Source: a virus
Taxonomy: Duplodnaviria > Heunggongvirae > Uroviricota > Caudoviricetes
Length of the DNA stretch: 48,925 nucleotides
IMG/VR virus record: IMGVR_UViG_3300045988_151382
Direction: 5' to 3' (one strand)
Numbering within the stretch: the stretch's first letter is position 1; the number at the start of each line of letters is the position of its first letter. The translations under genes and the position numbers were made by a program. This document shows, piece by piece, positions 20,571 through 45,702 of this stretch. The notes under the pieces are model-generated. The model was not told where the DNA came from and made no database searches. It saw only the letters and a list, made by a program, of their open reading frames with translations.

Positions 20571-21950
20571 CTACTTAATCAGCGGCCGGAAAGCCGCCAG
20601 CACATCATCAGATCGTCCGATTGTTGAACCACCAGGCAACGGCAACTCAAACTCAAAACGAACAGCTTTCTCCAGACTCGCCCAACTAAGGGAATCATCG
20701 TTAATGACGTGCAAATACCAGCTCTTACAGTTGAATATTGACCGCTTAATCCTGAAACCATGTACACGACACAACTGCTTCACTTCATCATCAGAGTGAA
20801 ACTTCTGGTAAAACCAGTGCCCCTTCCGGTACAACGCGGTAAAACCGTTATGATCAATAAAATAAAGCCGGCTTTTGGAACTCGCCGCTTGTGTTTGCTT
20901 CAGGACTGTTTCCAGCTCTCCACGGCTACGACCAGAAAAGAATATTGACCCACCAGCTTTACACAGGCCTTTCAGAACCGTCAGAACAGACCATTCAGCC
21001 TCGACACTATCGACCGAGTTCAAAACGCTATCGCAAATCACGTAGTCGTAACGCCCTCGCGTTTTTAAGTCGTCCACCAGCGTATCAATCATCCGGTTTG
21101 TTGCGGTCCTATCCAGAGTGTTTCCAGCGCCCTTACGGCGGAAAAGCTCGAGATCATGCAGGTTATATCCCTTTGCCCTGAGCATTCGCGCGTAGTCTCC
21201 CTGCCCCGAACCAAAATCAATTCCTCTTGGCGTCTTGGCAATGATCGGGAGGATCAACGACTCATACAGGTTTGATTTCAGGCTGCCACCATTACGCAAC
21301 CGCATAAGCTGCGCATACGTCTGGATGTATGTTGTTTTCTCCAGATGAGAATACTCAAATACACCATAAGTTTTATTCAGATAACTTTGGTATTTTTCCT
21401 TCTCAACATCAGGGATCACAAACACCGTTAGCGGTGTGCGCGTCATTTTCGCTGCTAATGCATACTGAGCACAGTGAATAACCTCACCAGACTGAGTAGC
21501 AACACAACCACCCCACGGACCATACTTGATAACCAGTTCCGCTATGTTCTTTCGAACATATGCCATTTTCGCGCGCATATTGCCTGAGATCTGGCTTGCC
21601 GATACCTGAACAAAACCATGCTTATCTTCCAGACCGGACACCCTGCAACGCTCATCTCCGCTATCAAAATCCGTTCCGTTATGCAGTTGGTTAAACCGTA
21701 CTTCGTCGTATACCGTCGTTTCACAGGGCAACACATACACCGCAGCACGCGTTATTCCCAACTTACGTAGCGCCTTCGTCCTTTGGTGTCCCGCCACCAG
21801 CAAATCGCCGCGCACTATCAATGGCTTCACAAGCCCCAGCTCCCTGACGCTTTCCGCCAGCCTCGCAAGATCATCCTCACCGATAAAACGCGGGTTATAT
21901 TCCGCGCCGCGTAGGTGCGTTATGTCGTAATTCAGGTGAAGCATCAGCAC
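20571..21950 (-). CDS. ParB-like N-terminal domain fused to class I SAM-dependent methyltransferase domain
   Basis: 459 aa; N-terminal KPLIVRGDLLVAGHQR (ParB-like); C-terminal IDFGSGQGDYARML (GxGxG SAM motif), later acidic and DSV motifs; no DPPY/NPPY motif seen. Confidence 0.6.
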   Translation of the reverse strand: MLMLHLNYDITHLRGAEYNPRFIGEDDLARLAESVRELGLVKPLIVRGDLLVAGHQRTKALRKLGITRAAVYVLPCETTVYDEVRFNQLHNGTDFDSGDERCRVSGLEDKHGFVQVSASQISGNMRAKMAYVRKNIAELVIKYGPWGGCVATQSGEVIHCAQYALAAKMTRTPLTVFVIPDVEKEKYQSYLNKTYGVFEYSHLEKTTYIQTYAQLMRLRNGGSLKSNLYESLILPIIAKTPRGIDFGSGQGDYARMLRAKGYNLHDLELFRRKGAGNTLDRTATNRMIDTLVDDLKTRGRYDYVICDSVLNSVDSVEAEWSVLTVLKGLCKAGGSIFFSGRSRGELETVLKQTQAASSKSRLYFIDHNGFTALYRKGHWFYQKFHSDDEVKQLCRVHGFRIKRSIFNCKSWYLHVINDDSLSWASLEKAVRFEFELPLPGGSTIGRSDDVLAAFRPLIK

Positions 21951-25449: not shown

Positions 25450-25525
25450 TGGTGGCCCCTACCGGATTTGAACCGATGACCGTGCGATTATGAGTCGCCT
25501 GCTCTAACCACTGAGCTAAGGGGCC
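25450..25525 (-). tRNA. tRNA with CAU anticodon (Met or Ile2/lysidine type), CCA encoded
   Basis: Minus-strand sequence GGCCCCTTAGCTCAGTGGTTAGAGCAGGCGACTCATAATCGC...GGTTCAAATCC...AGGGGCCACCA; 7-bp acceptor stem, D-loop AGCTCAGTGGTTAGAGC, T-loop TTCAAAT. Confidence 0.8.
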
Positions 25526-28952: not shown

Positions 28953-29590
28953 TGGTTGCCTCCTTTGCGAAGCTGGGCAGCGAACCTATCAGCTGCATCC
29001 GCGCAAGCAGAAGCAACGGAATCAAAAAATGGATCATCTCCTGTATCGCGCATCGTCAAAGCGAATGCCTCCACCCCTTGTGCCTGTATTTCTACAAGGG
29101 ATGCCTTAGATGTACTGCTTTTCGCCTCGCCTAATTCGTTATGAGCGATGTTCGCTATACATGCGATGTCTATATCTGGATGATTAATTGGGCAATGGCT
29201 AAGAATTGCCTCAAGTGCTGCTTTTTTGCTTTGGCATTCCGCCACCAGCGCCCCGCAATTGCTTTCATATTCGGCAATACGCTGTTTAGCAGCCTCCAGC
29301 TCAACACGCAGCTTCTCAAGCGTTAGAGCCATCTCCATGTTCTCGTCCAGCAGTTCAATCACATCAGGATCGCTATCATCAACTACTGTTATGCGCGATT
29401 TTTTGTAATGCTCGTCAGCATAAGTTCGTCCAGTTTTGAAGCATCCGTCGTCCTCCATGCCGGAACAGGCATAAACGACATGTGATCCAGATATGCGCTG
29501 CATTGACATTTCCTCGCCACAAACAGAGCATTTAGGCGCTGGTTTCGGTGAAAAACGTTCACGTAACGTATGATAGTAAAGCTCGCTCAC
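28949..29590 (-). CDS. Ea22-like protein with Cys-rich zinc-ribbon-like segment
   Basis: 213 aa; CSVCGEE...YACSG..GC cysteines; C-terminal AAQLRKGGNQ shared with 29587..30396. Confidence 0.4.
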   Translation of the reverse strand: MSELYYHTLRERFSPKPAPKCSVCGEEMSMQRISGSHVVYACSGMEDDGCFKTGRTYADEHYKKSRITVVDDSDPDVIELLDENMEMALTLEKLRVELEAAKQRIAEYESNCGALVAECQSKKAALEAILSHCPINHPDIDIACIANIAHNELGEAKSSTSKASLVEIQAQGVEAFALTMRDTGDDPFFDSVASACADAADRFAAQLRKGGNQ

Positions 29591-36905: not shown

Positions 36906-36925
36906 AACACATGGAGTCTCGACAA

Positions 36926-37579
36926 ATGACTATATCTGTAGGTATTTTCAACGGAAAAGGCGGCGTAACCAAATCAACCATTGCTCGTGCTTTAGCAGTT
37001 GCTTATGCAAAGGCTGGCTGGAATGTATGCCTGATCGATATGGATGTGCTTAACGGAACGGTAACGCGTTGGGTACAACGCAGAATGGCCAACAATATCG
37101 AACCTGCAATCGCGGCGCAGCCGTGCGGCACGCCATCACAAGTCCAGAAAATCATCGAATCAGAAGTATACGACCTGGTTATCGTTGATGGCGGTGCCTA
37201 CGCATCTGAATCAGTACCGAAGCTCTCTGAATTTCTGGATATGGTTATTTTGCCAACCAGATTCTCTACCGATGACCTGGAAACCACCGTTAACACAGCT
37301 CACGGCATCGTTAAAAAGGGTGTACCAATCAAGAAAATTTGCATGGTGTTTTCCGGCGCGGCTGAAAACGAAGCTGACTATATTGAAGCCCAAGAGTACC
37401 TGGCTAATACGCCATACTTTGTTGTCGATAAGTACATTCCCCACAAGCCAGCTCTGAGCAAAGCTCAGGATAAAGGCTTAAGCCTCATTGAGTGCTCATA
37501 CGTTGCGCCACGCAAAAAAGCAGACGACGTTATTCAGGGGATTATCAACCAGCTTGAGGCTCTGACTACTGCCGCGTAA
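36926..37579 (+). CDS. ParA-like partition ATPase (short type)
   Basis: Deviant Walker A GKGGVTKST near the N-terminus when started at 36926 (ORF track starts 36911). Confidence 0.7.
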   Translation: MTISVGIFNGKGGVTKSTIARALAVAYAKAGWNVCLIDMDVLNGTVTRWVQRRMANNIEPAIAAQPCGTPSQVQKIIESEVYDLVIVDGGAYASESVPKLSEFLDMVILPTRFSTDDLETTVNTAHGIVKKGVPIKKICMVFSGAAENEADYIEAQEYLANTPYFVVDKYIPHKPALSKAQDKGLSLIECSYVAPRKKADDVIQGIINQLEALTTAA

Positions 37580-37900: not shown

Positions 37901-38083
37901 TTGGCCGTAGCGACACAACAAGGGGAATTTGTTATGTCCGAGCAACAATATACACGGTTACTGAAAACTCGTCTAACCGACCTCAAACGGCTGCAAGCTG
38001 GTCGCTTATTTGCCCTGCTATCCACCAGGCCAGCATGGGTACGTGAAGCAGTTCTGAAAGGCTTAATGCGCTCCAGCGTTTAA
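37901..38083 (+). CDS. Hypothetical small protein
   Basis: 60 aa ORF after the par genes. Confidence 0.3.
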   Translation: MAVATQQGEFVMSEQQYTRLLKTRLTDLKRLQAGRLFALLSTRPAWVREAVLKGLMRSSV

Positions 38084-38093
38084 ATTCAACCAT

Positions 38094-38115
38094 AAAAAAG
38101 GCCCCCGAAGGGGCC
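38094..38115 (-). terminator. Rho-independent terminator (minus strand)
   Basis: Stem GGCCCC/GGGGCC with 4-nt loop followed by TTTTTT on the minus strand, just downstream of small ORF 38122..38244. Confidence 0.55.
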
Positions 38116-38121
38116 TAATCG

Positions 38122-38244
38122 CTACTTGCTGCTAATGTTTATCGTCACATTCAGAGCGTTATCAGTAATCTTCCAACCCTCTCCATGTGGCGTAAACAAA
38201 GCTCCAGTAACAACGATAAAAATACACATACAGTATTTTTTCAT
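38122..38244 (-). CDS. Small hydrophobic peptide (about 40 aa)
   Basis: MKKYCMCIFIVVTGALFTPHGEGWKITDNALNVTINISSK from internal Met of ORF 38122..38304; own terminator. Confidence 0.3.
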   Translation of the reverse strand: MKKYCMCIFIVVTGALFTPHGEGWKITDNALNVTINISSK

Positions 38245-38559
38245 TGTATGGCCCTTACAGGCCGTTTCACGGCATCCCCACCGACGAAAACAACGCGAGA
38301 GCAAGCACGGCTGCTTGTGCTTGCATGTACGGCAACGGAGAATCCTCCCCTAAAGTCGGTGCCCGGGTGCGAATCGGCGGGAAGGTCCACAGGTATTTTA
38401 CGATTATTTTAAGATTAGTAATAGGAAAGAAATTAAACGAAAAAACTCGTTTATTTTCACAAAATCAGTAACCTACCCACAATCTGTGAGTTTGCAGGCA
38501 CAACAAGAACCACAATTTTTTGAAGCATAATAGTGGACTATTATTACCTTTTGGGTAAA

Positions 38560-38840
38560 ATTAACTTGCTGCTTGTGCTTGCGTGGTTGTTTATACAACA
38601 ACGTAATGCTGAAAGGACCGCGAATCCGATCAGCACGAAAGAACCGTCCTCAATAGGGCGGTTTTTTTGTTTCTGCCTACCAATAAACCCACGCTATGTG
38701 GTTGTCTCTGTTAAAATCCCGCCGTATTGACATGAATGCGCCATTGGTGGACACTTTCCGAGCCGTAGCAAAATCTACGGTCGGGATTGGAACCCCGTAG
38801 ACACAATGGCGCATACCGCGTTAGCGGTTTTTTTATGCGT
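38560..38840 (+). ncRNA. Candidate regulatory RNA region upstream of the antirepressor operon; two intrinsic terminators
   Basis: Terminators at about 38644..38668 (ACCGTCCT/AGGGCGGT stem then T7) and 38815..38834 (ACCGC/GCGGT stem then T7); no ORF; repeated GATTGGAACC element. Confidence 0.45.
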
Positions 38841-39000
38841 AAAGCACTGCTACACCCAAATTATGGTGGGGCGTGCGGGGGAGTCGTAAGACTCGCCGGT
38901 TCGTCATTGTGTCCGGTAGTTCCAACCCTGCACGTCTCACCACCCAATGATTGGAACCTGACGGTGGTGAGTATCCTTAACCTTTAAGGGAATCATCACA

Positions 39001-39192
39001 ATGACAAACCTACCCCATGACTATTACGTCAACCTCGTAAAGATCCTTCTCAAGAAAGCCTCATACGCCGATAAATTCCGCCTGGCTGAAATCATCGAGC
39101 GCGAAGCTATGCGCATCGCCAGCAACGATAACGCTGTTTCTGTCGCAAAAATCTCCCTCGTAACCAAAGTAGTTATGGGAGGTGCAAAATGA
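39001..39192 (+). CDS. Small protein translationally coupled to antirepressor
   Basis: 63 aa ORF whose stop overlaps the ant ATG (ATGA). Confidence 0.4.
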   Translation: MTNLPHDYYVNLVKILLKKASYADKFRLAEIIEREAMRIASNDNAVSVAKISLVTKVVMGGAK

Positions 39193-40457
39193 AAACGCTT
39201 CCGACCGTTAACACCCTACAGCCTATCCTGCATAACCAAATCCCTGTCATTACTACCGAGTTACTGGCACAGCTTTACGGCGTATCTCCTGTACGCATTC
39301 GACAAAATCATCATGAGAATAAGGAACGCTTCATTGAAGGTAAGCACTACTTCAAAATTGAAGGTAACGAACTTCGAGAGTTAAAGCACAAAGTGACTCA
39401 AGATAATGATGTGAAGAACAAAAACTCTTTAAGAGATTCAGTTAATGACGCCCCCTCTAAAAGAGAGAGCGACGAGCACAGAGTAGTTTTAAACTACTCT
39501 GTTAACCACAAGGTAACTAAAAGTCACTCTGTGAAAATCGCCCGTAACGTTCGCTCCCTCATTCTCTGGACAGAACGCGGGGCTGCACGTCACGCTAAAA
39601 TGCTCGAAACCGATCAGGCATGGGATGTATTCGAACGGCTGGAAGACTGCTACTTCAACCAGAACGCGCAAACGGCCGCGACCGTAACCGTCTCACCAAA
39701 CAATGCTCGTGAGGTTGTCGATACGCTCAACGCTAAACCAATGTATTACGTTAAGGTGTGCAACAACGAGCCACTCACAACCTCAGCCGATGTTGCCCAA
39801 GCATTCAGCACCACAAACAATTCCATCGTTATGGCCATCGATGCGTTACGCATTCCTCGCACGGCTGCGGCGCGTCACTTCTTTAAAGAACAACGACCGC
39901 TGGAAGGAAGCGACCGCGAAATAACAATCTATCGCATGACAAAAGACGGATTTACCTTGCTCATGGAAAGTATCGACGGTCCAGGCGTGAAGGATATCAA
40001 GCTGGCCTACATTGAAGCCTTTAACGCTATCAGCAGCGTGTTAAAGGCAGAATACGAGCGAATGCTATACAACCGACTGTATCAGGAAACAAAGATTATC
40101 CGAACGGCAACAGAACATCATCGGCTATTAACGGAACCAAACTACCGCAAGACACTAATCAAAGAGTTTGACAAGGCGACGGAGAAAACTAAAGCGGCAC
40201 TAAATCTACCAACAATGACTAAAGATGATGTGATATCAGCCTTACTTCTTGATCTGCTCAGAAACGCCAGAGCACTTATCAGTTTTGACGAAAACCTGAA
40301 TCCTCAGCTCAAGCTACTACCACCGACAGGCAAAGTAGTCGACCAAGCAGATCACAACAGCATACTCAGCGTACTGGATGCAAACCTGCCAGCCAGGACA
40401 CTACAGGATCTGATAAAAACATGTGCTGATAAGCTGGCACAGAAAAGCAGACCATAA
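39189..40457 (+). CDS. Antirepressor (ORF6N/KilA-N-type N-terminal domain plus Ant-like C-terminal domain)
   Basis: 422 aa; N-terminal IPVITTELLAQLYGVSPVRIRQNHHENKERFIEGKHYFKIEG resembles ORF6N/Bro-N-type domains. Confidence 0.6.
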   Translation: MKTLPTVNTLQPILHNQIPVITTELLAQLYGVSPVRIRQNHHENKERFIEGKHYFKIEGNELRELKHKVTQDNDVKNKNSLRDSVNDAPSKRESDEHRVVLNYSVNHKVTKSHSVKIARNVRSLILWTERGAARHAKMLETDQAWDVFERLEDCYFNQNAQTAATVTVSPNNAREVVDTLNAKPMYYVKVCNNEPLTTSADVAQAFSTTNNSIVMAIDALRIPRTAAARHFFKEQRPLEGSDREITIYRMTKDGFTLLMESIDGPGVKDIKLAYIEAFNAISSVLKAEYERMLYNRLYQETKIIRTATEHHRLLTEPNYRKTLIKEFDKATEKTKAALNLPTMTKDDVISALLLDLLRNARALISFDENLNPQLKLLPPTGKVVDQADHNSILSVLDANLPARTLQDLIKTCADKLAQKSRP

Positions 40458-42146: not shown

Positions 42147-42446
42147 TCAGATGTTAAACGCTATTCGTTTTCCTGTGGGAAGCTCAACATCCAGGCTTAA
42201 TTTGCCTCCCATAGCTTCAACGTAACGCTTTAATGTCGCCAGCTTTAAATCATTTCCGCGCTGCTCCAGCTTTGTTACTGCTGGCTGGCTTATACCCATC
42301 GCCTCAGCAACCTGCTTTTGTGATAACTGGAGTTCTTCACGCATCATCTGCAAGCCGACCTCAAGAATCATCTCATCTGCCATTTCTTTAATTCGCGCCT
42401 GGCTTTCCGGTGAACGGCTGGCAATCACCTCATCTAATGTTCTCAT
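42147..42446 (-). CDS. HigA-like XRE-family antitoxin
   Basis: 99 aa; HTH LSQKQVAEAMGISQPAVTKLE; directly downstream of toxin-like gene with ATG/stop overlap. Confidence 0.6.
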   Translation of the reverse strand: MRTLDEVIASRSPESQARIKEMADEMILEVGLQMMREELQLSQKQVAEAMGISQPAVTKLEQRGNDLKLATLKRYVEAMGGKLSLDVELPTGKRIAFNI

Positions 42447-42799
42447 TACTTGCTCTCCAGTGTGTTCAGATGTGCTGCAAACTCATCCTCAGCTATACGC
42501 ACCAGTTTTTTATAAAACCGCTTATCGTTACTTTTGTCTCCTGCACAAAGAACGATAGCCCGGCGAATCGGATCGAACGCATAAAAGGCTCTTATCGGAC
42601 GGCCAGAAAACTGAACGCGAAGCTCTTTCATATTTTTGTACCGAGAACCTTTTACGGTATCGGCATATGGCCTGGGTAACTCAGGTCCGTAAACCTGTAG
42701 CTTTTTCAAATCAGCCAAAACCTTTTCCTGAAGAGCGTCTTCTTGCTCATTTAGCCAGTCGTCAAATCGCTGGCTAAAAAGTACCGTCCACATGCTCAA
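42446..42799 (-). CDS. HigB-like (RelE-fold) toxin
   Basis: 117 aa; toxin-first arrangement characteristic of HigBA modules. Confidence 0.5.
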   Translation of the reverse strand: MSMWTVLFSQRFDDWLNEQEDALQEKVLADLKKLQVYGPELPRPYADTVKGSRYKNMKELRVQFSGRPIRAFYAFDPIRRAIVLCAGDKSNDKRFYKKLVRIAEDEFAAHLNTLESK

Positions 42800-44255: not shown

Positions 44256-45104
44256 TTAATGTTGGAGTGATTTCCAGGTCTTTCTTAGCCTGTTATAACG
44301 CTGCTCAACGAGGGATCGTAAATATGCAAGGTCAGCACCTGGATACATGCCATCAGCAAATTCCTGGCTAACCTCTCTAGTGATTTGATGACGAAGTTCG
44401 GCCTCTCCCTTTTCCCGGACAAGACGCGCAGCTCTCTCCGCTGCTTTCTGTTTTGCCTTTATCTCTCTGGCCGTCTTCCTCTGGCGCCATACATTCTCCA
44501 TCTGCTCCTGAATAACAATACGCTTATAATCAGCCTCCGTTATCGCTTTTTTAAGCCGTTCGCTATTCTTCGCATTGAAGTAATTAAGTTTCTGGCTAAC
44601 CGCACGTCTCCATGCTTGTTCAGTAATACCAACGGTTTCCAGCAGTTGATCACGAATCTCTATTTTCGCTGGCCAATACTGTTTATTCACCCGATCCCAG
44701 CGACGTTCATAATCAATAAAACCTAACGCTTTCAGTTGCGACAACGCCCTTGTACAGCGCGTTATAGACTTGTTCCCAGCTTCGGATACGGTAGACAGGC
44801 CGCAAAAATCAGCCAACGCCTCAGCACTAGCCAGAACCCGCTTAGAAATGATGTTTACATGGTGCAAAATCGCAGCGATCACAGCATTAATCGCCCGACG
44901 ACGATGCTCGTTTATCCGGCGCTTCCGCCCTGACGGTTGATTAACGTAGAACGCAACCTCACACGTAAGATCACGACCATTAATGCGCTGTAAAGCATCA
45001 GATAACACCAGCGGCAGCTTGTGCGTATGGTGCTTTGGAGGCTGGAACTCCGGCGACAAATTACAAACGTAAGCGGAACGTAGAGACGGCATTGGTCTAT
45101 CCAT
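44256..45104 (-). CDS. repA: Replication initiator RepA, IncFII RepA1-like
   Basis: Segment CGLSTVSEAGNKSITRCTRALSQLKALGFIDYE resembles recalled IncFII RepA1 block; start uncertain (ORF open to 45236, internal ATG at 45104). Confidence 0.65.
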   Translation of the reverse strand: MDRPMPSLRSAYVCNLSPEFQPPKHHTHKLPLVLSDALQRINGRDLTCEVAFYVNQPSGRKRRINEHRRRAINAVIAAILHHVNIISKRVLASAEALADFCGLSTVSEAGNKSITRCTRALSQLKALGFIDYERRWDRVNKQYWPAKIEIRDQLLETVGITEQAWRRAVSQKLNYFNAKNSERLKKAITEADYKRIVIQEQMENVWRQRKTAREIKAKQKAAERAARLVREKGEAELRHQITREVSQEFADGMYPGADLAYLRSLVEQRYNRLRKTWKSLQH

Positions 45105-45136
45105 ATGTTCGCTCTTGCGTCCACGGAAAACCAACG

Positions 45137-45229
45137 TATAATGGGAGTTGTCGAGGCGCCCATGGATTGTTGTTGTTGGTTTTCCGTGGATGTCGCAAGA
45201 AGCCCGCAGATTTATCTGCGGGCTTTTTG
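45137..45229 (+). ncRNA. CopA-like antisense RNA candidate opposite the repA leader
   Basis: TTGCGT-N16-TATAAT promoter, 15-bp inverted repeat CCACGGAAAACCAAC/GTTGGTTTTCCGTGG, then terminator GCCCGCAGA-TTTA-TCTGCGGGC-TTTTT. Confidence 0.5.
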
Positions 45230-45702
45230 TTTCCATATCTGGTCAGTTTCCAACCAGACACCCACAATCATAACCACGTTACGTGGTTTTAAGAGAACTC
45301 TACCACAACACTTTCGGTCATGCACGAAGTCTCTCACTGATCGAACGATAATCCACCAGTAAAAGGATCTAAATTGGATCTCGTTTTGCGAGCATCATAC
45401 TACTGGCCTAACTCCAGTCAATGATTCCCAGCCAGAAACCTGCGGTAAACTCATCGTTCAGCAATATGCTGTCCGGCTTCAAAGATAAGGTGACATCATC
45501 CCTTAACAGCGCGGCCAGTTCAGTTAAAGGGCTGTTCTGATTTAATGCTGGCCACTCATACCTGGTAATAAGTGGTCAGTCTTAACACTCACCATTTGAT
45601 TGCACCCGTGTTGACGATTTGTTACTGGATATCAGACACGCTGGATAGCCAGTAGAAACATACCATTAAAATTATTACAATAATTGGTCACATGATTATC
45701 TT

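Follow-up and report, generated by a model that had tools for sequence, protein, structure and literature searches.

A diverged relative of timPR on a myovirus-type phage-plasmid: a very probable type I toxin-antitoxin module

RESULTS

The stretch of DNA analyzed here (48,925 nucleotides; hereafter, the window) is, judging by its gene content, an essentially complete phage-plasmid of about 49 kb and of the myovirus type. Its products include terminase, portal, sheath, tape-measure and tail-fibre proteins, along with an IncFII-type RepA, a ParA and a type II toxin-antitoxin pair. It also encodes a CI-like repressor and a P1-like immunity region consisting of isrK, the C4 RNA and an anti-repressor (ant). 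The locus under study lies between the par and ant operons, as the initial annotation of this DNA had stated: ParA and small plus-strand open reading frames (ORFs) are found to its left, and isrK/C4/ant to its right. The coordinates of all features are collected in Table 1.

Using an Rfam scan of the whole window, we found a match to ryfA (RF00126) on the minus strand, at 38390..38094, that covers model positions 1 to 296 of 296 and scores 143.1 bits (E = 7.7e-37), against a gathering score of 80 bits. Homologous loci in other elements (L001, L004, L008, L018, L032 and L048) scored between 134 and 168 bits with the same model. ryfA was first described as a noncoding RNA of 300 nucleotides (nt), and is the mRNA of TimP, a toxic inner-membrane protein of 38 amino acids (PMC7667032). 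The mRNA, formerly called ryfA, is now timP, and its antitoxin small RNA (sRNA) TimR was formerly STnc2070 or RyfB (PMC7667032, PMC11228461, PMC13000454). In Escherichia coli K-12, the annotated genes are timR (b4811), ryfA (b4440) and timP (b4812). The same Rfam scan returned no hok/sok match; at the locus, it returned only ryfA. A few weak matches below threshold (RNAI, with 26.7 bits on the TimR gene, and Atu_C8, PhrS and Phe_leader) were taken as chance.

The strong minus-strand terminator described previously was readily recovered. It consists of the hairpin AGGCCCC-UUCG-GGGGCCU (38116..38099), which begins five nt after the stop codon and is followed by U6 down to 38094; with -15.6 kcal/mol, it is the best terminator-like site between 36.5 and 39.5 kb. 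At the other end of the transcript, every allele has a -10-like hexamer (TAAAAT, TAATAT, TACTAT or TATTAT), always equally far from the RNA start, although the flanks are unrelated. The -35 of this putative promoter is poor, and no good candidate was seen for it. Of the span first assigned to the locus (38094 to 38304), the left edge and the terminator therefore stand, and the right edge does not, as it reflects a mechanically called ORF starting with TTG, and the transcript would extend to about 38390.

Table 1. Positions of the timPR-like locus and of other features of the window
Feature	Position	Strand	Details
ParA	36911-37579		Left flank of timP
timP toxin mRNA (ryfA RNA family), ~297 nt	38094..38390	minus	From a putative start near 38390-38388 to the terminator U-tract
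Intrinsic terminator of timP	38094..38116	minus	7-bp G+C-rich stem, UUCG loop, U6; aligns with the RF00126 terminator helix
TimP-like toxin ORF	38244..38122	minus	40 aa plus stop; ATG at mRNA +147
Stem-loop 4 (SL4), sequestering the Shine-Dalgarno (SD) sequence AAGGG (38256..38252)	38248..38265	minus	From the Rfam alignment; role from PMC11228461
Site 4, ACGGC	38265..38261	minus	mRNA +126..+130; partner of site 2
Pseudoknot site 3, GUCGGUG	38279..38285	minus	mRNA +106..+112; apex of stem-loop 3
Predicted TimR-binding site, CAUGCAAGCACAAGCAGC	38310..38327	minus	mRNA +64..+81, in stem-loop 2 (38301-38324)
Site 2, GCCGU	38329..38333	minus	mRNA +58..+62; pairs with site 4
Pseudoknot site 1, CACCGAC	38355..38361	minus	mRNA +30..+36, stem-loop 1; pairs 7/7 with site 3
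Likely timP -10 box, TAAAAT	38395..38400	minus	Putative; hexamer equidistant from the RNA start in all alleles
TimR promoter-like site	38534..38561	plus	TGGACT, 16 nt, TAAAAT; start placed at ~38568
TimR-like antitoxin sRNA, ~100 nt	38568..38667	plus	Approximate ends; seed nt 1-18, two internal hairpins, intrinsic terminator
TimR terminator	38643-38667	plus	CCGUCC/GGGCGG hairpin, then U7
Gp49/HigB-like toxin and HTH antitoxin, type II toxin-antitoxin	42147-42799		
IncFII-type RepA	44256-45236		

Within this transcript, the minus-strand ORF of about 40 codons reported in the initial annotation was found with the same product, MKKYCMCIFIVVTGALFTPHGEGWKITDNALNVTINISSK (40 amino acids), reading from the ATG at 38244 to the TAG at 38124-38122. 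As in timPR, a small ORF (~38 to 41 codons) thus begins at about +145 of the mRNA, with its SD sequence within SL4. A reading of 60 amino acids from the TTG at 38304 was rejected, as L008 and L048 have a stop codon in this frame 9 nt before the ATG. The peptide, previously unrecognized, belongs to the TimP family: it aligned with the NCBIfam model NF040796 (toxic_TimP) over residues 1 to 40 of 40, with an E value of 7.1e-5. Its score of 23 bits is below the curated cut-off of this subfamily model, which is used by PGAP and set at 45 bits for the whole protein; K-12 TimP scores 86.8 bits. On this alignment, the peptide is a TimP homologue outside the curated NF040796 subfamily. No Pfam family was found for it. 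A protein-homologue search with the peptide returned only two clusters, since ORFs so small are rarely called; one of the clusters (P0002) led to the diverged L008 allele.

The window peptide and K-12 TimP (MKIRCFCIVLIVSGALLTEVNNNRSLSGDNLLVVNNLQSSK) align end to end with about 37% identity (15 of 40 aligned residues). Residues common to both include M1, K2, C5, C7, I8, I10 and V11, followed by G-A-L, T, D-N, L, V, N and the terminal S-S-K. Their hydropathy profiles are the same: the mean Kyte-Doolittle value of the window peptide is 2.36 for residues 4 to 17 and -0.53 from residue 18 to the end, and the corresponding parts of K-12 TimP have 2.34 and -0.68. Both, by hydropathy, have a hydrophobic N-terminal region of about 20 residues that resembles a Sec signal, and a more polar C terminus. 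The C-terminal half of the window peptide (GEGWKITDNALNVTINISSK) is unlike that of chromosomal TimP, and the peptide has a conserved C-terminal motif of its own, GxGWK[IV][ST]xNx[LF]NVTIN[IV]S[SG]K. Because of this different C-terminal half and the NF040796 score below the cut-off, toxicity equal to that of chromosomal TimP is an assumption. The initial annotation had offered a small secreted peptide as one possibility. By analogy with Salmonella TimP, however, the window peptide is most likely membrane anchored, with an uncleaved signal-like N terminus (PMC7667032).

The ORF is conserved in relatives. In comparisons between alleles, dN/dS ranged from 0.06 to 0.46, with the least variation at codon position 2. 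The start codon, the SD sequence and the stop codon are conserved across alleles; the frame upstream of the ATG is not. By these substitution patterns, the timP ORF is under purifying selection.

We then compared the leader with the structure published for Salmonella, in which stem-loops 1 to 4 (SL1 to SL4) are combined with an SL1-SL3 pseudoknot that is essential for timP translation (PMC11228461). RNAfold, applied to the whole leader, did not reproduce SL1 and SL3 and instead nested the pseudoknot helix, and the published structure was therefore assessed by pair counting. Over seven alleles, 89.6% of its positions are paired, compared to about 41%, with a range of 36 to 44%, in controls with slid partners. 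Changes on both sides are seen in eight pairs, a level of covariation that no shuffle reached. The 7-bp pseudoknot is 100% paired in all seven alleles, and two of its pairs differ on both sides from those of K-12 (CACCGAC/GUCGGUG in the window versus CGCUGGC/GCCAGUG in K-12). In the helix of SL4, whose 3′ arm contains the SD sequence, two pairs are changed on both sides across alleles. The pairing of site 2 with site 4 (GCCGU/ACGGC, 5 bp) is kept in all alleles. In Salmonella, this interaction, which frees the SD sequence, was defined experimentally and involves 6 nt (PMC13000454).

The locus had been described as a stand-alone unit. This description does not hold, as a gene for a partner sRNA, TimR, was identified on the plus strand at about 38568 to 38667. 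An exact plus-strand direct repeat of 15 nt, GCTGCTTGTGCTTGC, is found at 38310-38324 and 38568-38582, and these are its only exact copies in the window. Because the repeat is direct and the timP mRNA is read from the minus strand, a rightward transcript that starts at 38568 has a 5′ end complementary to the leader. Nucleotides 1 to 18 of TimR (38568-38585) and +64 to +81 of the timP mRNA form a predicted duplex of 18 bp, including one G-U pair, and TimR pairs at the same place, in SL2, in Salmonella (PMC11228461). The TimR-like RNA is 67% identical to K-12 TimR, with the common core GAAAGG(A)CCGCGAA. It folds at -39.1 kcal/mol (z = -4.4), better than all of 200 shuffled sequences. The position of TGGAC(T/A) and of the -10 of TimR is conserved in four of the plasmid and phage alleles, although the surrounding spacer has only about 50% identity. 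Thus, as in timPR, a divergent sRNA has a 5′ end of about 18 nt complementary to SL2 and an intrinsic terminator; the divergent starts are separated by 177 bp in the window and by 399 bp in K-12.

A promoter for an overlapping antisense RNA had been suggested as something to look for. No plus-strand promoter-like site was detected inside 38094-38390, and near timP the only such sites were those at 38456-38483 and 38534-38561. A sok-like antitoxin, overlapping the toxin gene in cis, was rejected as a candidate; the antitoxin is divergent, as in chromosomal timPR, and the timP start lies about 180 bp downstream of neither gene's overlap but apart from the TimR start by that distance, on its upstream side.

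Comparison of related elements and the chromosome revealed six recognition alleles: that of the window, one shared by L001, L003, L006 and L007 (the type found in Yersinia phages and in ATCC 25922), that of L004, one shared by L008 and L032, that of L048, and that of the K-12 chromosome. In each of the six, the timP mRNA pairs best with its own TimR. The cognate helices comprise 17 to 20 uninterrupted bp in register in five alleles, and 12 + 7 bp around one mismatch in L048. Cognate duplexes have energies of -31 to -41 kcal/mol, compared to -18 to -25 kcal/mol for mixed pairs between mobile elements and K-12; the closest plasmid alleles (window, L001 and L004) still cross-pair over 15 to 18 bp. 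Seventeen positions of the duplex show compensatory double changes among the six alleles, a pattern by which the cognate TimR-timP duplex is kept through compensatory changes. Between plasmid alleles, identity is 98% in the coding sequence and 3′ untranslated region (UTR), 86 to 87% in the leader and 91 to 98% in TimR. The spacer between the two promoters has only 46 to 54% identity, compared to 86 to 98% for the RNA genes, and therefore selection acts on both RNAs and not on the DNA between them.

The locus is found in 60 PLSDB records of nearly identical, nonmobilizable circular plasmids of 46 to 50 kb, almost all from Escherichia. E. coli ATCC 25922 harbors a related plasmid of 48,488 bp, pATCC25922_4. 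By blastn against 5,426 complete E. coli genomes, it was present in 72, and 73 of its 74 places were on plasmids. This search never found the chromosomal ryfA, only the plasmid copies, and as a result the homology with chromosomal timPR is visible only with the covariance model and in the alignments of peptide and sRNA. Conversely, megablast detected chromosomal timPR in all 5,426 genomes and never on a plasmid. Every E. coli carrier of the element therefore has two timPR systems, with differing recognition sequences. The locus is also present in vB_YpM_39, 41 and 44, three phages for which Yersinia pestis was the isolation host, which indicates that this phage-plasmid family produces virions. 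In IMG/VR, about 10 further contigs contain it; scans with 15-mers gave mostly chance matches, from which local blastn left 10 genuine ones. A scan of genome contigs with a 21-base pattern of the mobile clade gave a single chance match, in a high-GC Parvibaculum metagenome-assembled genome (MAG), without ryfA.

The position of the module differs between elements. In L008 and L032, it lies downstream of ant and not between par and c4, so the module is not invariably linked to par. A transposase of the IS91 family adjoins it in L008 and L009. Judged by these placements, the timPR module behaves as a movable cassette.

DISCUSSION

Taken together, these comparisons make it very probable that the phage-plasmid carries a type I toxin-antitoxin module of the timPR type, with the ORF as its toxin gene. 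The earlier suggestion of a type I toxin locus is thus borne out by the full-length ryfA/timP match, the homology of the peptide with TimP and a cognate sRNA with covariation. The window locus has every defining feature of timPR that can be read from sequence; only its score against the curated NCBIfam model falls below the threshold. Membership in the family, cognate pairing with covariation, conservation of the RNA elements and coding selection are observed directly. Toxicity, membrane targeting and translational repression are carried over from the Salmonella homologue and would apply to the window copy by analogy. The locus is a diverged and mobile relative of the known timPR, and no new mechanism is involved.

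According to our model, leftward transcription from about 38390 would give a timP mRNA of about 297 nt that ends with the terminator (38116-38094). The mRNA leader, of 146 nt, would fold into four stem-loops, with SL4 locking the SD sequence. Translation of the 40-amino-acid peptide would need the SL1-SL3 pseudoknot (CACCGAC/GUCGGUG), and the second long-range pairing, GCCGU/ACGGC, would open SL4. TimR, of about 100 nt, would be transcribed rightwards from about 38568 and pair through its 5′ 18 nt with SL2 of the leader. In Salmonella, binding of TimR to SL2 destabilizes the translatable pseudoknot form (PMC11228461), and in the window the same event would disrupt this form and block translation. 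Once TimR falls, TimP would be made and inserted into the inner membrane through its signal-like N terminus, leaving the membrane leaky. In Salmonella, TimP indeed makes the membrane leaky, its toxicity depends on the start codon, and the timP mRNA outlives TimR (PMC7667032).

Chromosomal timPR of Salmonella, E. coli and Shigella (PMC7667032, PMC11228461, PMC13000454) is the closest system. Both share an mRNA that measures about 300 nt and has its ORF at +147, a peptide of about 40 amino acids with a hydrophobic signal-like N terminus, an SD sequence sequestered in SL4, the 7-bp SL1-SL3 pseudoknot and the pairing of sites 2 and 4. A divergent sRNA of about 100 nt whose 5′ end pairs with about 18 nt of SL2, and intrinsic terminators on both genes, are likewise common to the two. 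However, the chromosomal copy lies between sseA and sseB, whereas that of the window is on a phage-plasmid, has a different recognition sequence and belongs to a set in which several recognition alleles circulate among related elements.

Other type I systems resemble the locus in part. hok/sok (parB of plasmid R1) is also plasmid borne, with a small membrane-damaging peptide, a labile RNA and control by mRNA folding, and it is the model for the addiction role proposed below. In contrast, Sok overlaps the hok leader in cis, and hok needs the mok upstream ORF and 3′ processing; the window locus is unrelated to hok/sok in sequence, and timP needs no mRNA processing (PMC11228461). In tisB/istR-1, shoB/ohsC and zorO/orzO, a divergent antitoxin with a separate promoter also pairs with a stretch of about 18 to 20 nt of the toxin 5′ UTR, well ahead of the ribosome-binding site, but the RNAs and peptides are unrelated and control relies on mRNA processing and standby sites, not on a pseudoknot switch. 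In gene setting, the parallel is phd/doc of P1, a toxin-antitoxin system on a low-copy-number plasmid prophage that, as here, also has a par system and immunity functions of the c4/ant type. phd/doc is a protein-protein (type II) system, whereas the element of the window has a type I module in addition to its separate Gp49/HigB-like type II pair.

The locus exposes a gap in annotation. The related RefSeq, GenBank and PLSDB plasmid and phage records that we inspected carry no annotation for the peptide or for either of the two RNAs. PGAP does name chromosomal timP; the mobile locus goes unannotated in RefSeq because its peptide scores below the NF040796 cut-off. The papers examined describe timPR/ryfA as a chromosomal locus of enterobacteria (PMC7667032, PMC11228461, PMC13000454, PMC11295053, PMC8594479, PMC13188913), and a full-text search, itself of incomplete coverage, found no paper on a copy in a phage or plasmid. 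As a model of translation control by an RNA switch, timPR has been dissected in detail. A diverged copy beside par on a phage-plasmid offers a natural setting for testing what timPR is for, all the more useful given that the chromosomal pair is present in every E. coli host as well. Moreover, the natural recognition alleles constitute a ready-made set of compensatory mutants.

Plasmid stabilization, which the initial annotation had invoked, is a plausible role for the locus. We regard post-segregational killing that stabilizes the low-copy-number plasmid prophage as the most likely role, and we propose it tentatively, as a reading nearly as apt to prove right as wrong. It is favored by the position of the module beside the par genes, by the timP mRNA outliving TimR in Salmonella, and by a recognition sequence distinct from the one in the host chromosomal TimR. 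Killing after plasmid loss might nevertheless be weak, because TimP at native levels is only mildly harmful in Salmonella: deletion of timR at its native locus caused mild membrane stress only, without a growth defect (PMC7667032). The Gp49/HigB-like toxin and HTH antitoxin of the same plasmid could themselves supply addiction, and the variable linkage of the module to par is a further reason for caution.

A wider proposal, which is possible and which we hold with distinctly less confidence than post-segregational killing, is that these loci form a distinct, horizontally mobile timPR clade on IncFII-RepA myovirus phage-plasmids of Enterobacteriaceae. Its recognition alleles, at least five, would be insulated from chromosomal timPR, and the module would serve as an allele-specific addiction or exclusion device against related phage-plasmids or other phages. 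If true, this would be the first clear selective function for timPR.

The module may alternatively act in abortive infection or superinfection exclusion, with the same timPR mechanism and only a different biological role. An invading phage would halt transcription, the labile TimR would decay, and TimP would permeabilize the membrane before the invader finishes. Exclusion of T4 by hok/sok, as cited in PMC13000454, illustrates that a type I system can exclude a phage. The module does lie in the genome part of a temperate phage that holds accessory and immunity functions, beside c4/isrK/ant; it occupies different places in related elements, as a cargo cassette would, and the type II pair already present could serve addiction. 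On the other hand, no defense island is apparent around the locus, and no anti-phage phenotype of timPR was found in the papers examined. We consider this role unlikely, although it deserves more weight than those that follow.

It is still less probable that the 300-nt RNA acts mainly in trans, as the sRNA RyfA, tuning stress, biofilm or virulence genes of the host for the lysogen, with the ORF secondary. Reports assign RyfA a regulatory role in virulence and in the responses to oxidative and osmotic stress in uropathogenic E. coli (UPEC) and describe it as a ProQ-bound sRNA in avian pathogenic E. coli (APEC) (PMC8205139, PMC10664665, PMC13188913). However, the ORF is under purifying selection, with start codon, SD sequence and stop codon conserved and the upstream frame not; the leader keeps all of the elements for translation control; and a dedicated antitoxin sRNA covaries with it. 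The dependence of Salmonella toxicity on the start codon (PMC7667032) likewise argues against a mainly regulatory RNA, although the RNA may have both functions.

Very improbably, TimP could be a holin-like accessory of the phage lytic cycle, released when prophage induction alters TimR levels. Membranes made leaky by TimP (PMC7667032) would suit this role, and TimR immediately precedes the isrK-c4-ant immunity transcript on the same strand. Nevertheless, a nearly identical plasmid has a lysis cassette of its own, with two holin-family genes and a GH108 endolysin, and the adjacency of TimR and isrK is not conserved, because an HTH gene intervenes in some relatives and the module is elsewhere in others.

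Finally, ORFs of this length often arise, and the hairpin, with an A-tract on its plus-strand 5′ side, is found 16 nt past the stop of a plus-strand ORF ending at 38083, but a chance ORF beside a hairpin that merely terminates a convergent par operon is refuted by the full-length match to the RF00126 covariance model and the clear coding signature, by the compensatory changes in the TimR-timP duplex and the leader, by the UAAUCG, in place of a U-tract, that follows the plus-strand hairpin, and by conservation of the locus in 60 plasmids and three phages.

Position of the timPR module in related genomes

We compared the surroundings of the timP-TimR toxin-antitoxin module in the window with those in related genomes. 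In the window, par and c4 flank the module. Conversely, L008, L009, and L032, three relatives that carry a more diverged allele (peptide identity 68%), have it downstream of the anti-repressor gene. Because its position in these relatives differs from that in the window, the comparison suggests that timPR moves as a cassette. In L008 and L009, an IS91-family transposase adjoins timPR. Another group of relatives, which includes L006 and L001, carries a helix-turn-helix gene of about 570 nt on the minus strand, between the TimR terminator and isrK. To the right of TimR, the sequence of this group is unrelated to that of the window.

Directly 3′ of TimR, the window contains a P1-type immunity region. 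The C4 antisense RNA is followed by a 63-aa icd-like ORF, which overlaps the start of a 422-aa anti-repressor gene. The annotation of the related RefSeq plasmid includes none of the three RNA elements (c4-a1b1, isrK, and C4 antisense RNA).

Features of the window and of related genomes (coordinates are those of the window unless a relative is named)
Feature	Coordinates	Strand	Remarks
Diverged timPR allele	L008 373-2654; L009; L032 3074-3368		Convergent with anti-repressor gene
Helix-turn-helix gene	L006 (E. coli ATCC 25922 plasmid pATCC25922_4) 2050-2622; L001 likewise	-	Insertion
Small ORF	37901-38083	+	60 aa from TTG; internal ATG at 37934; stops 16 nt before timP terminator hairpin
P1-type immunity region	38749-38947, then 39001-40457	+	
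c4-a1b1	38749-38801	+	Rfam match, under gathering score
isrK	38762-38834	+	Rfam, 67.7 bits
C4 antisense RNA	38859-38947	+	Rfam, 77.8 bits
icd-like ORF and anti-repressor	39001-40457	+	
tRNA gene	25453-25525	-	Rfam tRNA, 67 bits
Second toxin-antitoxin pair	42147-42799	-	Gp49/HigB-like toxin, 117 aa (PF05973); HTH_3 antitoxin, 99 aa

The timP locus and its left-hand neighbor

Codon 5 of timP (38230-38231) encodes cysteine (TGT) in the window and its closest relatives and tyrosine (TAC), a two-nucleotide change, in the Yersinia-phage, ATCC 25922, and L004 alleles. Cys5 is one of two cysteines common to the window peptide and its chromosomal homologue, K-12 TimP. Within the timP leader, a promoter-like match (GTGAAA, 16 nt, TACAAT) at 38243-38270 (-) overlaps SL4 and ends at the start codon; it is probably a chance resemblance to the consensus.

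The small ORF to the left of timP had no Pfam match. Among the relatives inspected, L003 alone has an annotated ORF here, for a hypothetical protein of 49 aa, and its identity to the window over 38000-38093 is only 37%. Transcripts coming from the par side would extend into timP in antisense orientation if the timP terminator hairpin did not stop them as well.

Further matches to the TimR seed

The 15-nt TimR seed repeat has two additional near-matches in the window, at 20884-20898 (+) and 29003-29017 (-), with two mismatches each, which brings the matches to four, compared to 0.17 expected by chance. The former falls within a minus-strand ORF (20571-21950), a ParB-N-domain protein in relatives, so that the mRNA of this ORF would be partly complementary to TimR. 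This mRNA is a possible second TimR target, or the match may be fortuitous.

Other features of the window

The counterpart of the tRNA gene is annotated as tRNA-Ile in a near-identical plasmid. In the second toxin-antitoxin pair, the toxin gene overlaps the antitoxin gene, and the near-identical plasmid has a counterpart gene annotated as a RelE/ParE-family toxin.
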